Below the pieces are notes generated by a model. That model saw nothing but the letters and a program-made list of their open reading frames with translations. It made no database searches and had not been told where the DNA came from. From a virus, in the IMG/VR virus record IMGVR_UViG_3300030061_002429, positions 1-64,000 of that record: DNA of 64,000 bases. One strand, written 5' to 3'. Within the stretch, counting starts at the first letter, position 1. Each line of letters opens with the position of its first letter. Below are positions 342 to 62,344 of the stretch, piece after piece. A program made the translations under genes and the position numbers.

Positions 342-620
342 ATGAGCCAGTCGTTTAACATAGCATGGTCTATGTTAAAACAAGACTTCCGTGAGGCAAT
401 GGAGTCGCAAGTAGACCCACAGGGTCAATTGGCGCAAGCATTGGCTATGGCTCGACAGCAGGGACAGGCTCCGCCTATCCAGTTTGCACCAAGACTACCG
501 CAACCTCAAACAATGCCTCAAGACCCACGTCAAACAACCCTACCGCCTGAATTTATTGGTGATGCAACTGTAGGTCGTGACTTTAGTCAAGCCTTGCAAA
601 ACATCAAGCCAAAGCGGTGA
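342..620 (+). CDS. small Q/P-rich protein with N-terminal AWxxLK tag
   Basis: ORF 318..620; ATG 342 gives MSQSFNIAWSMLK; TTTTAT about 25 nt upstream; contains DPRQTTLPPEF. Confidence 0.7.
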   Translation: MSQSFNIAWSMLKQDFREAMESQVDPQGQLAQALAMARQQGQAPPIQFAPRLPQPQTMPQDPRQTTLPPEFIGDATVGRDFSQALQNIKPKR

Positions 621-624
621 ACAA

Positions 625-1389
625 ATGAACGCCTTTGACATTGCTTGGTCTTTGCTCAAAGAAGACGACACAATGCAATACGGTGAACGAGCAGTAAATC
701 GGCAAAGAGTACTGCCAAGTGATGGCTCATCTTTCATGCCTGTGCTTGCTGATTCAGCAGAAGTCATAGACAGGGAATTTGCAGAAGGTTTAGCACGTCG
801 AATGGACACAAGCCCACCTAAAACACCAACAAAAGTTGTACGCTATCCTGAAGGTAATTGGGGCGATAAGTATGTTCTTGAAGATGATGAAAGAAATGAA
901 TATTCACAAGTTAGCGGAATGGTAAGAGATTCTTGGGATAAAGGATTCAATGAACGTCAAGGAATATCAACTGTAAATCCTACATTATCAAGCATAATGT
1001 CCGAAACAAAACATGGTGAACGACGCAAAGGACATTACGAAAGACTGTTAAATACAATACTGCAAAACAATATGAACATACATTCAACCTCAAGAAATTA
1101 TGCATCTGAACCATTTCATCAAAAATTTCAAGGTCGTTTAGCACCAAATATTGAAATGCATACACGATACAATAGTATTGGAAAACCAAAATTTCTTTAC
1201 ATGAAAAACCCAATCAAAGACTCAAAACAACAAGCGGTGCGTAATGTACAGGGTTGGGGTGACTTGCAACCTGATTACAATACGTTACCGCTTGTTAATT
1301 TTCAAGATACAATCAAGCCACAATTAGGTAATTTGTTTGAACAACATTATGGTACAAATCAAACAAGTCTTAACGACTTTGGTCAATAA
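625..1389 (+). CDS. tagged protein with GNAT-like acetyltransferase domain and C-terminal PIP-like motif
   Basis: GGTGA RBS then MNAFDIAWSLLK; ERRKGHYERLL resembles GNAT motif A and SEPFHQKF motif B; ends QTSLNDFGQ. Confidence 0.55.
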   Translation: MNAFDIAWSLLKEDDTMQYGERAVNRQRVLPSDGSSFMPVLADSAEVIDREFAEGLARRMDTSPPKTPTKVVRYPEGNWGDKYVLEDDERNEYSQVSGMVRDSWDKGFNERQGISTVNPTLSSIMSETKHGERRKGHYERLLNTILQNNMNIHSTSRNYASEPFHQKFQGRLAPNIEMHTRYNSIGKPKFLYMKNPIKDSKQQAVRNVQGWGDLQPDYNTLPLVNFQDTIKPQLGNLFEQHYGTNQTSLNDFGQ

Positions 1390-2000
1390 AACAATTGCTG
1401 TGGTTGGAACAACGGTTCTTCCATTTTCTCGTCTTCTGTTTCCGCTAAACGGCGAATAATGTCTTCTGTAAACGGTGTGGTATTGTGAACAAGGGTTTCG
1501 TCTTTACCGTTGACAATTTCGTGATTTCTATCAAGTGTTTTGATGCTGTCACGCAACTCTTCGCTTAGTGCGCTTGGTAGTTGCAGTGTGCCTTTAAGAA
1601 GTCGAAGGTCATCAAGTACACCTTGCAACTGCTTTTGCATAGTACCTGCACCAACTTTTGCTTTTTCAGCCATTTGCATAGACCGATTTTGTTGGTCTGT
1701 TTTGCGTTGTTGTTCCATTTGTTGCTCATGTTGTTTTTTCTGTTGTGCCATTTGCGTTGCAACTAAACCTGCTTGTACTTTTTTATCGCCTAATTTTTCA
1801 GTAACAGCACCTACTTTTTGCCCCACGGACGATTGCGCTACTTTTTGTCCGACTTCTTTAGCAGCACCAGCAGCACCACGAGCAAGGTTTGCAGTACCAG
1901 TAGCAAGTGCTCTTGCTCCTGTAGCAGTTGCAACTTTACCTGCTAATGCTCCTAACGCAAGTAATGGAGCCGCTTTGACTACCAATATCTTGTGGCCCAT
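1383..2000 (-). CDS. hypothetical Ala/Gln-rich helical protein
   Basis: ORF 1383..2087; likely start MGHKILVVKAAP at 2000 (or 2015), divergent from the 2052 gene; hydrophobic Ala/Gly stretch followed by a Q-rich coiled coil. Confidence 0.7.
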   Translation of the reverse strand: MGHKILVVKAAPLLALGALAGKVATATGARALATGTANLARGAAGAAKEVGQKVAQSSVGQKVGAVTEKLGDKKVQAGLVATQMAQQKKQHEQQMEQQRKTDQQNRSMQMAEKAKVGAGTMQKQLQGVLDDLRLLKGTLQLPSALSEELRDSIKTLDRNHEIVNGKDETLVHNTTPFTEDIIRRLAETEDEKMEEPLFQPQQLFY

Positions 2001-2051
2001 GACACTCGTAGACATCGGTATTTCTAAATTGTATCGTTGCCTCGCACGAGT

Positions 2052-60896: not shown

Positions 60897-61231
60897 TTGA
60901 ATACGACTTTTGCGATTGTTGTACACCAATGGAAAATGCAATAGCATTGATGAAAGCAAAGAAAAAGAGCAAGCCTTTTCACGGCTACAATCCAAATCGA
61001 CATCACAGAAAGGGTGGTTTAAACGCTAAAGGACGTGCCAAAGCAAAGCGTGAAACTGGCGCAAACCTCAAACCACCTGTGACAACAAAGCCGAGCAAAC
61101 TCAAACCCGGTAGCAAGAAAGCCAAGCGTCGTAAATCATTCTGTGCAAGAATGGGTGGTATGAAAGGACCAACATCGAAGAAAGGCAAATTGACTCCGAA
61201 GGGTGCGGCTCTCAAGCGATGGAACTGTTGA
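60893..61231 (+). CDS. small basic tagged protein (DUF6321-like pattern)
   Basis: CDCCTPMENAIALMK then GGLNAKGR...NLKPPV...RRKSFCARM...ALKRWNC. Confidence 0.7.
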   Translation: MIEYDFCDCCTPMENAIALMKAKKKSKPFHGYNPNRHHRKGGLNAKGRAKAKRETGANLKPPVTTKPSKLKPGSKKAKRRKSFCARMGGMKGPTSKKGKLTPKGAALKRWNC

Positions 61232-61243
61232 GGTGGAAAAAAA

Positions 61244-61747
61244 ATGTTTGAGAAGGCATGGCGTTTTCTCAAGGCTTCTCGTCAAATGAAGTTGTACAAT
61301 TACATTGAGGACTACCCCGGTATGAACCCTGTAAGTGGTTATAGAGGTGTACCACTAATGTCCACGGCTCCCCAAAGTCAAGAAAATTGGTCACAAAAAC
61401 CCGATTCTTTCATTGACCTAAGCGGAAAAGGTACGTGGTGGGCTGATAAAAAAACCGTTGAACCACACGCAACTGCATCGTTTTTTGCTAACGCAAATTT
61501 TCATGATGTAGAAGGAACTCCAACAGTACTTGGTCTTCGTGGACCTATGGAGAATTATGGTAGAGTACAACGTAGACGAGGTTGGAATCCAACAAATGAA
61601 CGACTTCTTTCAGAAGCACTAATTACTCATGATAAGCCTATTGATTGGGAGAACATTGTGTTTTCTCAACCATCGGAAAGTGTGACTACTGGTATGACTG
61701 AAGAAGAGGAAGAGGCATGGGCTAAACAACAATTTGGGTGGGCTTAA
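61244..61747 (+). CDS. tagged ADP-ribosyltransferase-like protein with PIP-like motif
   Basis: MFEKAWRFLK, RQMKLYNY, SGYRGV...GTWWA...VLGLR...SEALITHDKPI. Confidence 0.5.
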   Translation: MFEKAWRFLKASRQMKLYNYIEDYPGMNPVSGYRGVPLMSTAPQSQENWSQKPDSFIDLSGKGTWWADKKTVEPHATASFFANANFHDVEGTPTVLGLRGPMENYGRVQRRRGWNPTNERLLSEALITHDKPIDWENIVFSQPSESVTTGMTEEEEEAWAKQQFGWA

Positions 61748-62344
61748 ATGTTTGAGAAGGCATGGCGTTTTCTCAAGGCTACACGCCAAACCACACTTGG
61801 CGAGTTTCATCCTGATTTTCCAAGTCCTCATGGTCCTGTGACTATGCGAAGGTTTCACCCTACACAAGAATGGGGAAATAATTGGTTAAAAACAATTGAT
61901 ACAGGGTACGCTACTCATGATGATTTTAATCCTGATGAATTTCAACCGTATGAAGATTTAATTATTGAAGGTCTTAAACCGCAAGCACCGACTTTAGATA
62001 GTATATTATGGGAAAATGACCATGTAGAAGATAACATAGATGATAATGTTAAACCATTTCGTTTAGATGAAACCACATTAGGCAATTGGTTTTATCCTAC
62101 TGGAAAATTGACCGATGACCAAAAGGCTTTATCACATGAATTTATGATAGAAGATGGACAGCGAAAACAAATAGGTGTAAGAATGCCTATTGAACAATTA
62201 CAAGGCCAATTTAGAAATTTAGGGTATATGGGTGAAGCACCTGAAGCGCACGTAATAAATCATATTCCTCCGCAATACTTAGTACAACTTCCTGATAATT
62301 TTTATGGCGAAGGAGAAGCAACTTGGGGGGCGAAGGGAGAATGA
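61748..62344 (+). CDS. tagged ADP-ribosyltransferase-like protein with PIP-like motif
   Basis: MFEKAWRFLK, RQTTLGEF, VTMRR...GLKP...GNWFY...IGVR...PEAHVINHIPPQYL. Confidence 0.5.
   Translation: MFEKAWRFLKATRQTTLGEFHPDFPSPHGPVTMRRFHPTQEWGNNWLKTIDTGYATHDDFNPDEFQPYEDLIIEGLKPQAPTLDSILWENDHVEDNIDDNVKPFRLDETTLGNWFYPTGKLTDDQKALSHEFMIEDGQRKQIGVRMPIEQLQGQFRNLGYMGEAPEAHVINHIPPQYLVQLPDNFYGEGEATWGAKGE

Follow-up and report, generated by a model that had tools for sequence, protein, structure and literature searches.

A recurrent Leu-Lys-ending peptide on unrelated virion-strand proteins of a magrovirus, a candidate address for head cargo

The magrovirus window and its peptide tag

The window analysed here is the first 64 kb (positions 1–64,000) of the 101,688-bp record IMGVR_UViG_3300030061_002429 and represents the virion half of that genome; its subject is a ten-residue peptide, hereafter the tag, that ends in Leu-Lys and recurs on otherwise unrelated proteins. 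All long open reading frames (ORFs) of the window lie on the + strand, including head genes recognised with Pfam: large terminase (17600), portal (21831), S78 prohead protease (30757), and a SU10/HK97-type major capsid protein (MCP; 32143); genes are named here by the coordinate at which they begin. Outside the window, the opposite strand encodes PolB, a clamp, a primase, and a thermosome subunit (group II chaperonin). Magroviruses are uncultured viruses with mostly orphan genes that are abundant worldwide and among the most abundant archaeal viruses of the surface ocean. The MCP is 82–98% identical to those of hundreds of marine IMG/VR contigs; its identity to the capsid proteins of haloarchaeal siphoviruses (HVTV-1, HCTV-1, and HCTV-5) is 35–37%. 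This pattern of identity, together with a genome of ~100 kb and a thermosome gene, matches the published description of group A magroviruses (Philosof et al., PMC5434244). Comparisons were made between the genome under study (G000), a complete relative (G001; 107.6 kb, with direct terminal repeats), and 80 loci from other relatives that were fetched via the capsid gene, without regard to the tag.

The tag has the consensus [P/A]-[F/M]-x-x-A-W-x-phi-L-K (phi, hydrophobic), with a variant form in which Trp is replaced by Met, Ile, or Phe and which ends in LLK. The exact string AW..LK occurs nine times in the 20,772 aa of window proteins, against 0.03 ± 0.18 expected from 300 residue shuffles. 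Looser forms (LLK, LEK, and Met/Ile variants), together with one more member in 24920, bring the total to 17 tags, all on the virion strand; the looser forms are four EPM(D/A)LA(M/I)DxLLK linkers within one protein (3731–6382), EPMDGAWSSLLK (in 12253), MTSAWDMLEK (in 19193), and TPMENAIALMK (in 60893). The additional member, EYIIAWQSMQK, lies near the N-terminus of a 1932-aa protein (24920) and is kept in relatives. The original prediction had listed 16 such strings, all 16 of which were recovered in + strand gene frames at, or within a few bases of, the positions where it had placed them. The tags and the proteins that carry them are as follows.

351–380, + strand: N-terminal tag SFNIAWSMLK of a 92-aa orphan (Met at 342 the probable start, end at 620); G001 homolog not found
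631–660, + strand: N-terminal tag AFDIAWSLLK of a ~254-aa orphan (Met at 625 the probable start, end at 1389)
3731–6382, + strand: putative cargo polyprotein of 883 aa, five modules with four tag-type linkers between them
4415–4450, + strand: linker tag 1 of the polyprotein, EPMDLAMDILLK
5189–5224, + strand: linker tag 2 of the polyprotein, EPMDLAIDALLK
5558–5593, + strand: linker tag 3 of the polyprotein, EPMDLAIDALLK
6107–6142, + strand: linker tag 4 of the polyprotein, EPMALAMDALLK
6387–6419, + strand: N-terminal tag TPMQEAWQILK of gene 6384–6983, which has an HExxH string; G001 homolog not found
6983–7015, + strand: N-terminal tag TPMQEAWLLLK of gene 6980–7486, GNAT-like cargo
12646–12681, + strand: internal tag EPMDGAWSSLLK, residues 132–143 of a basic 628-aa protein (12253–14139)
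19259–19288, + strand: variant tag MTSAWDMLEK of a small basic DUF5872-like protein that ends at 19414; conserved in G001
25058–25090, + strand: tag-like EYIIAWQSMQK of the 1932-aa protein 24920–30718, between portal and protease; EYIIAWESLEK in G001
34855–34887, + strand: N-terminal tag KPIEKAWRVLK of a 61-aa, 4-Cys Zn-ribbon-like protein that ends at 35034
35788–35817, + strand: C-terminal tag SFRDAWSVLK at the end of gene 35047–35823
35861–35893, + strand: N-terminal tag TPFNIAWSILK of gene 35858–36142; G001 homolog not found
60923–60955, + strand: variant tag TPMENAIALMK of a basic DUF6321 protein (60893–61231)
61244–61273, + strand: N-terminal tag MFEKAWRFLK of a weakly ADP-ribosyltransferase (ART)-like gene that ends at 61747
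61748–61777, + strand: N-terminal tag MFEKAWRFLK of a gene that ends at 62344, its post-tag segment common to PARP-like cargos of relatives

N-terminal tags mostly begin 1–4 residues past a Met that follows the preceding stop codon and a Shine–Dalgarno (SD)-like GGTGA/GAGG. Eight of the nine exact copies lie a few residues from such a Met, and the ninth is the extreme C-terminus of gene 35047. In 24920, the first ADLLK was dropped as a site because only the AW-type string, and not ADLLK, is conserved in G001. A whole-genome scan of the 48 replication-strand proteins found no comparable tag, only three weak look-alikes, and no tag was found in the nine tail proteins. The recurrence first reported is borne out. 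Also upheld is the earlier claim that similarity between tagged proteins stops at the Lys: numbering back from this residue as P1, mean pairwise identity between tags is 0.36–0.40 over P10–P1, and falls to 0.07 over P1'–P10'.

The tag is found clade-wide, and of the 68 strict copies in the two complete genomes and 80 loci combined, all but one (67) have the orientation of the coding strand. G001 has seven strict tags on its coding strand vs. none on the other, and a reversed-pattern control gave none. Also in G001, the tag-like EPMDLAWQMLFK lies in a 532-aa ORF (reverse-complement coordinates 36392–37990) on the strand opposite the other tagged genes; the ORF is an inverted cargo gene unless it was called spuriously. 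The same pooled set was used to gauge constraint by relaxing one position per run (leave-one-out). P1 was Lys in 48 of 53 matches and never Arg, P2 was Leu in 48 of 52, and P3 was hydrophobic in 49 of 52; further upstream, Trp was kept at P5 (48 of 63), Ala at P6 (48 of 58), Phe/Met at P9 (48 of 52), and Pro/Ala at P10 (34 of 50). The other strand gave almost no matches in these runs. Most tags differ from one another at synonymous sites, while A, W, L, and K stay the same; the tag is a selected peptide, and not a DNA repeat. An AlphaFold2 model of protein 6980, built with 12 homologs, places the tag (residues 3–12) in a single helix, the last residue of which is the Lys, with the cargo domain coming next. 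The hydrophobic moment of single 11-mers is marginal (the observed value was reached by 3–37% of shuffles), and thus the claim of a helix rests on the AlphaFold2 model and on the spacing of the constrained positions.

Cassette exchange and the tagged cargo

Strict tags front at least 25 unrelated downstream clusters in G000, G001, and the 80 capsid-anchored loci. They bound mobile cassettes in three settings (N-termini, polyprotein linkers, and a C-terminal junction), and modules swap between proteins in relatives, as was foreseen in the original description of a plug-and-play arrangement. Residues 499–621 of the 883-aa polyprotein, which lie between two linkers, are 70% identical to a segment bounded by two tags in the G001 ortholog of 12253, in which these two tags enclose an extra module. 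The start of the 61748 cargo resembles the segment directly after a linker in the G001 polyprotein. Among close relatives the polyprotein has two, three, or four tags and differing middle modules within flanks that are 70–100% identical, and it is followed downstream by zero, one, or two free-standing tagged genes. Homologs of gene 35047 all end in [FM]RDAWS[IV]LK, after which there is either a stop within a few residues or one of at least nine different extensions, most of them Cys-rich.

The reverse situation, in which one cargo has many leaders, is seen for DUF6321 (gene 60893), which has thousands of homologs. In the best 120 of these, the cargo always starts as K↓AKKKSKP (↓, predicted cut), and the peptide before it varies between AWGLLK, AWDILK, AWSFLK, AFALMK, AFEFLK, and VEALLK. 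An IMG/VR scan for the flavour TPMxxAWxxLK returned 115 matches, 76 of them directly after a start Met vs. about two expected; these Met-led matches frequently form tandem arrays, and amount to 50 distinct complete proteins that fall into 13 further cargo clusters. Tandem arrays of up to four MTPM-tagged genes were seen in IMG/VR relatives L137 (3300–5200), L193, L186, and L111, where each gene is preceded by near-identical DNA, GACCATAGTGGGGAGTGAGGCGT, that contains the SD-like GGGGAGTGA; the array unit looks like a cassette of ribosome site and tag. Five of 13 tagged genes have no homolog in G001, compared with one of 36 untagged virion-strand genes (p = 0.003). The tagged genes are the variable part of the genome.

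Searches of tagged proteins against Pfam and PHROGs were almost all negative, and the cargos are mostly orphans; a search with 61748 in the ESM Atlas gave nothing usable. The payload labels assigned in the original prediction fared unevenly. Its Zn-ribbon and basic labels hold; the cargos include Zn-ribbon-like proteins and two very basic small ones (DUF6321 and DUF5872-like) with an isoelectric point (pI) above 10. For the GNAT label of 6980, support from the fold is weak: GNATs fill nearly all of the top Foldseek rows, but at E 0.01–0.1 and TM scores of about 0.3, and there is no Pfam match. The family has an invariant RRRGYA[TS]ALY, to be compared with the R/Q-x-x-G-x-G/A acetyl-CoA motif of GNATs, and tag flavours swap within it. 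For 6384, the HExxH string is present, without family support for the label. The module called HNH-like, the last of the polyprotein (residues 808–876), matches phrog_6437, a family of unknown function. The label ART-like has support in the wider 61748/61244 family, the largest cargo cluster, for which a profile of 13 tagged relatives matches the PARP16 catalytic domain (E 4e-4), with only ART-fold proteins below PARP16 in the list; for the two window genes it is weak. PARP-like ARTs are marked by H-G-[ST], G-x-G-x-Y, and a third acidic or variable motif on an ART fold. Gene 61244 matches the ART profile at 45% probability, with R instead of H, and the body of 61748 does not align to it; what 61748 has in common with the family is confined to the tag and the 19 residues of a post-tag segment. 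A tagged HD_4 phosphohydrolase in relatives scores 30 bits vs. the Pfam cut-off of 27.2. These recognisable cargo types would fit delivered effectors or internal proteins.

The post-tag segment of 61748, RQTTLGEFHPD.PSP.GPV (61778–61834), is also found in relatives L191, L193, L114, and others, on at least two body types, and would be the new N-terminus after the predicted cleavage; it includes a PIP-box-like Q-x-x-L-x-x-F-H. The 628-aa protein 12253–14139, just upstream of the terminase, is of low complexity and strongly basic (pI 10.2, 17% K+R, 19% P+G), and may be a DNA-associated internal head protein. Pfam DUF5872 is split in the window: its positions 5–44 match 19193–19414 and its positions 55–114 match the start of 19569–20495, with a 53-aa Cys-rich ORF (19411–19572) between the two parts.

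Capsid protein, protease–scaffold, and Lys junctions

Beyond the tags, candidate cut sites that end in Lys occur in the capsid protein, in the presumed protease, in small head-module proteins, and as short leaders of larger proteins. The relevant features, including two scaffold-tail motifs, are these.

2064–2084, + strand: short leader KPVLVLK of a 561-aa protein (2037–3722); kept in relative L101, VLVRK in L102
14151–14168, + strand: short leader PSRLLK of a 722-aa protein (14136–16304); FPLIK↓AW at the equal position in G001
16318–16338, + strand: short leader RPILVLK of a 428-aa protein (16309–17595); KVLVK↓ at the equal position in G001
23667–24044, + strand: small basic head-module protein with leader MDLLK (23691–23705); K13 conserved in 27 of 27, and the G001 ORF begins MDLIK
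24041–24388, + strand: small acidic scaffold-like protein with sites DLALLK (24116–24133) and DSILK (24266–24280)
24326–24358, + strand: scaffold-tail motif NMSWEEIHEMA at the end of the small acidic protein 24041
30757–32133, + strand: S78 prohead protease (residues ~1–170) fused to an acidic scaffold-like extension (Pfam Peptidase_S78, E 2e-9); presumed cutter
30781–30801, 31243–31260, and 31951–31965, + strand: candidate sites K15, K168, and K403 of the protease, Lys conserved in 98–100% of 62 relatives
32077–32109, + strand: scaffold-tail motif NMSWDEVHNLA near the C-terminus of the protease–scaffold
32143–33252, + strand: HK97-fold MCP (likely start Met at 32152; Pfam SU10_MCP; AlphaFold2 predicted local distance difference test, pLDDT, 88)
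32236–32253, + strand: MCP junction GSELLK, predicted maturation cut after Lys, followed by ADAPML

The MCP model has VIA Z scores of 17–22 to solved capsid proteins, including 17.5 to HK97 (1ohg) and ~17.5 to encapsulin shells. Its junction, YSGSELLK↓ADAPMLSTTAG, is invariant in 80 relatives, and is aligned with GGMSK↓ADNLL in HVTV-1. Across 122 full-length representatives (33–59% identity), a junction of the form phi-x-(K/R)↓[AST]D[AD]P...TTTG is nearly universal (K in 93 of 123 rows, R in 15 of 123, and a hydrophobic P3 in 94), and the segment upstream of it ranges from 16 to 108 residues. The only disordered stretch of the MCP model (pLDDT below 50) is residues 20–33, directly before the junction Lys. 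In the VIA comparison, model residue 49 pairs with residue 119 of HK97 and residue 176 of T5 pb8, and the junction is 14–15 residues earlier. The deposited mature chains begin near residue 104 (HK97) and 161 (T5), as estimated from chain length and last aligned residue, and their mature N-termini fall opposite model residues 33–35, which is the junction. The conserved Lys therefore sits where HK97-type capsid proteins are processed; the HK97 capsid protein is reportedly cut by gp4 at Lys103↓Ser104, a finding of Duda, Hendrix, and co-workers. For HVTV-1, reviews examined for N-terminal data are silent on processing.

The protease 30757 is encoded next to the MCP and also matches Pfam S78_2. Its sequence contains HSN at residues 62–64 and GFSIGG near residues 119–124, which correspond to the motifs of HK97 gp4 that hold its catalytic His and Ser. 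The S78 domain ends about the ILK at residue 168, and the stretch 31243–31275 encodes ILK↓ED (residues 166–170) and then Met173, which is 100% conserved. Met173 could be a nested internal start of a separate scaffold protein; nested scaffold starts are described for HFTV1 (gp17/gp17.5; bioRxiv 10.64898/2026.09.13.751334) and phage lambda (C/Nu3).

Lys residues of phi-phi-K sites are kept in 98–100% of relatives amid variable flanks at K403 of 30757, K13 of 23667, and K31 and K80 of 24041, the last two conserved in 29 of 29. Leaders that lack the A-W part (14136, 16309, and 23667) are conserved as phi-phi-K↓ in G001. The string [LIM]LK is 3–4-fold enriched only in the pre-terminase and head blocks, and is flat in the tail and replication blocks, as are control tripeptides; a phi-[LIM]-K site occurs within the first 45 residues in 19 of 37 head-block proteins vs. 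four of 60 others, and in none of nine tail proteins (p = 8e-7). The conserved MCP and scaffold junctions have the same phi-L-K ending as the tag.

All relatives have the tail motif NM[SG]W[DE]E[VI]Hx[LM]A, as does a lineage with 53% MCP identity (L100: KSWQDIHFMA and DWNEFHGFA); it is probably the capsid-binding tail of scaffold proteins. It has in common with the tag only [S/A]-W-x-x-phi-[K/H], and the residue at W+2 is acidic in the tails vs. hydrophobic in the tags. Because of this limited overlap, competition of tag and tail for one site is a hypothesis and not a result.

A candidate propeptide for head cargo

The original prediction is supported in part. The tag is, on balance, probably a helical propeptide, portable between proteins, by which these are directed to the magrovirus head during assembly, comparable to the capsid-targeting sequence (CTS) of phage T4 but run by an HK97-type protease. 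From the sequences, we infer that tagged proteins are docked, cleaved, retained, and injected, by the following route. The amphipathic helix would dock the attached protein to the prohead interior, either to the scaffold or to the inner face of the MCP. The scaffold-fused S78 protease, once active inside the prohead, would cut after the tag Lys, as it would the MCP at ELLK↓ADAP and scaffold-type proteins at their conserved phi-phi-K. Cutting would free the N-terminally tagged cargos, split the 883-aa polyprotein, and detach the variable extensions from the 35047-type carrier. The freed proteins would remain in the capsid with the DNA and probably be delivered to the next host cell, a set that would include PARP-like ADP-ribosyltransferases, an HD hydrolase, a GNAT-like protein, zinc ribbons, and very basic small proteins. 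Constrained residues with helical spacing well beyond P4 argue for a docking role besides that of a cut site, and cleavage is argued by the similarity that stops exactly at the Lys, the lack of Arg at P1, and the layout of the polyprotein. As a self-contained cassette end, the tag would allow cargo genes to be swapped quickly.

Several points weigh against this interpretation. The virus is uncultured and known here from its genes alone. The A-W part is missing from the MCP and scaffold sites, so that Leu-Lys could be all that connects a cut site and a docking helix of separate origin, and the tagged genes of the pre-terminase block may have no role in the virion and simply be on the same strand. 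The protease ALLK near its N-terminus and ILK168 may be conserved for structure or for the nested start Met173, and two candidate sites (portal K124 and K28 of 24388) were dropped as they are not conserved. No such tag was found in the cultured relative HVTV-1, and no AW tags were found in 21 kb around the capsid gene of L100, a locus that retains the scaffold-tail motif and the Lys junction. The restricted resemblance between tag and scaffold tail noted above counts on this side too. A wider version, in which the ten-residue helix occupies the scaffold-tail site on the interior of an HK97-fold capsid and the protease frees effector cassettes after the Lys, is conceivable, but we would not call it probable. 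In this version the tag would be the viral equivalent of an encapsulin cargo-loading peptide, sequence alone would reveal which effectors uncultured archaeal viruses deliver (PARP-like ADP-ribosyltransferases, nucleotide hydrolases, and acetyltransferases among them), and the tag could serve as a packaging handle for foreign proteins.

In T4, the CTS is carried by IPI–III and Alt and is removed by the prohead protease gp21 (PMC9026906). The resemblance to the magrovirus tag is functional: about ten residues are common to otherwise unrelated proteins, the peptide ends in a cut motif of the head protease (here predicted), targeting and processing determinants would occupy separate parts of the peptide (here inferred), and the cargo, which includes an ADP-ribosyltransferase, is poorly conserved between relatives. 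Unlike in T4, the protease is of the S78 (HK97) type and not the gp21 type, the predicted rule is phi-L-K↓ vs. L/I-x-E↓, the tag is also used as polyprotein linker and C-terminal junction, the host is archaeal, and the system is known only from genes. The T4 analogy drawn in the original prediction therefore stands for function, and does not extend to protease family or cut rule; with an S78 protease and Lys-ending junctions, the magrovirus system is analogous, not homologous, to that of T4. In the giant phages phiKZ, 201phi2-1, and SPN3US, many head-internal proteins are cut at a simple motif by one self-cutting prohead protease, and it has been proposed that their propeptides target proteins into the prohead (PMC10052503). 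Those propeptides are mostly 111–254 aa and dissimilar beyond A/S/G-x-E, in contrast to the reuse of one short helix by the magrovirus. The Dar proteins of phage P1 (DarA, DarB, Hdf, and others) are head-internal anti-defence proteins loaded during assembly, of which DarA loses its N-terminus to the prohead protease next to the MCP cleavage site (PMC12810830). P1 has a cargo protein of ~2000 aa, comparable in size to the 1932-aa protein 24920, but its loading is hierarchical via DarA/Hdf, with no common short tag. HK97 has the same protease family and capsid fold, and is cut after Lys at the start of the N-arm, as is predicted for the magrovirus, but is not known to have a tagged cargo family; its targeting peptide is the protease C-terminus, a tail that is said by Duda, Hendrix, and co-workers to suffice for carrying a protein into the prohead. 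Encapsulins likewise use a short terminal peptide (N- or C-terminal) on unrelated cargo of an HK97-fold shell, and in their case binding is known. Encapsulin cargo-loading peptides are extended and Gly/Leu-rich, differing in motif from the magrovirus tag; they bind the shell interior and are not known to be cleaved, and neither protease, DNA, nor delivery is known to take part.

Four other explanations were considered. It is unlikely that the tag is a cleavage signal only, that is, an extended site or linker for the prohead (or another viral) protease, with head entry set by the cargo bodies or by other proteins. This would account for the phi-L-K ending common to MCP and scaffold junctions, for polyprotein linkers that resemble classic processing sites, and for several very short leaders (for example MDLLK↓ and PILVLK↓), whose length would not allow docking, but constraint reaches P9/P10 with helical spacing (F/M, A-W, phi-L) in a peptide modelled as a helix, whereas proteases usually bind 4–6 residues in extended conformation; moreover, a protease confined to the prohead reaches only substrates that are already inside. 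The use of the tag at N-termini, internally, and at an extreme C-terminus, as with encapsulin peptides, could also point to an uncut docking helix, a permanent tether to a virion component (capsid interior, scaffold, portal, or DNA) in which the Lys is a contact. The likeness of the MCP model to encapsulin shells (Z about 17.5) and the partial likeness of tag and scaffold-tail motif are consistent with such a tether, which we nevertheless regard as quite unlikely: similarity stops exactly at the Lys with no spacer preference, P1 is never Arg, the tag ending is that of the MCP junction where HK97-type proteins are cut, and it is hard to see why unrelated modules would be joined in polyproteins that are not processed.

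The capsid may be uninvolved if the helix instead recruits proteins to a viral or host factor, such as the virus-encoded thermosome subunit or a host complex. Absence of the tag from the 48 replication-strand and nine tail proteins, its presence within the head module itself (24920, 34849, 35047, and 35858), and the match of its ending to capsid and scaffold junctions make this improbable, even though the genome encodes a group II chaperonin (cf. PMC5434244), T4 propeptides are also credited with chaperonin recruitment (PMC10052503), and many tagged genes lie in the pre-terminase block. Finally, the tag DNA and its upstream ribosome-binding site might be a homology patch for cassette exchange, with the peptide as a by-product. 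Cassette exchange is observed, an identical 33-nt leader is found on 61244 and 61748, linker DNA is near-identical within the polyprotein, upstream DNA is conserved in the tandem arrays of relatives, and the replication strand has a constant-leader family of its own (MIDTDKYEGH). Yet most tags differ synonymously with A, W, L, and K unchanged; it is the peptide that is conserved, with alternation of F/M and of L/I/V/F, strand and frame are fixed, and a strict amino-acid constraint with free codon choice has already been seen. As the sole explanation, recombination is thus very improbable, although recombination-joint and peptide roles are not mutually exclusive.

We know of no report of head loading beyond capsid and scaffold proteins, or of effector delivery with the DNA, by archaeal tailed viruses. 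Literature searches, limited to one library, found no paper on the tag or on any capsid-targeting sequence in archaeal viruses, in agreement with the novelty claimed at the outset. If the propeptide reading is correct, it would give a function class (virion cargo) to at least a dozen orphan genes per genome, and to hundreds across metagenomes. It would imply an independent origin of the T4-style logic of address plus cut site, here based on an HK97-type protease and a Lys rule, and would point to the ADP-ribosylation of host targets in marine archaea as infection begins. It would also link viral cargo loading to encapsulin-type loading on a common shell fold.

Other long or repetitive features were noted in these genomes. 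After the tail genes, a single ORF of 5576 aa (44166–60896; 6359 aa in G001), untagged and not enriched in Leu-Lys sites, presumably encodes a giant fibre or adhesin. HVTV-1 gp115 (‘zeta toxin’, 1314 aa) and gp116 (L081, 4590–4692 and 8700–8934) have a common repeat, RVYVDSP..APEGVQVQQG...G.WFY; its RVYVDSP..APEGVQVQQG part was rejected as an analogous tag, as it has only 2–3 copies per genome in the HVTV-1/HCTV viruses. The MIDTDKYEGH family, a second constant-leader gene family without the Leu-Lys ending, is located in the replication half outside the window (genome positions 90542–92735, - strand), where seven back-to-back genes share the start MIDTDKYEGH and then diverge.

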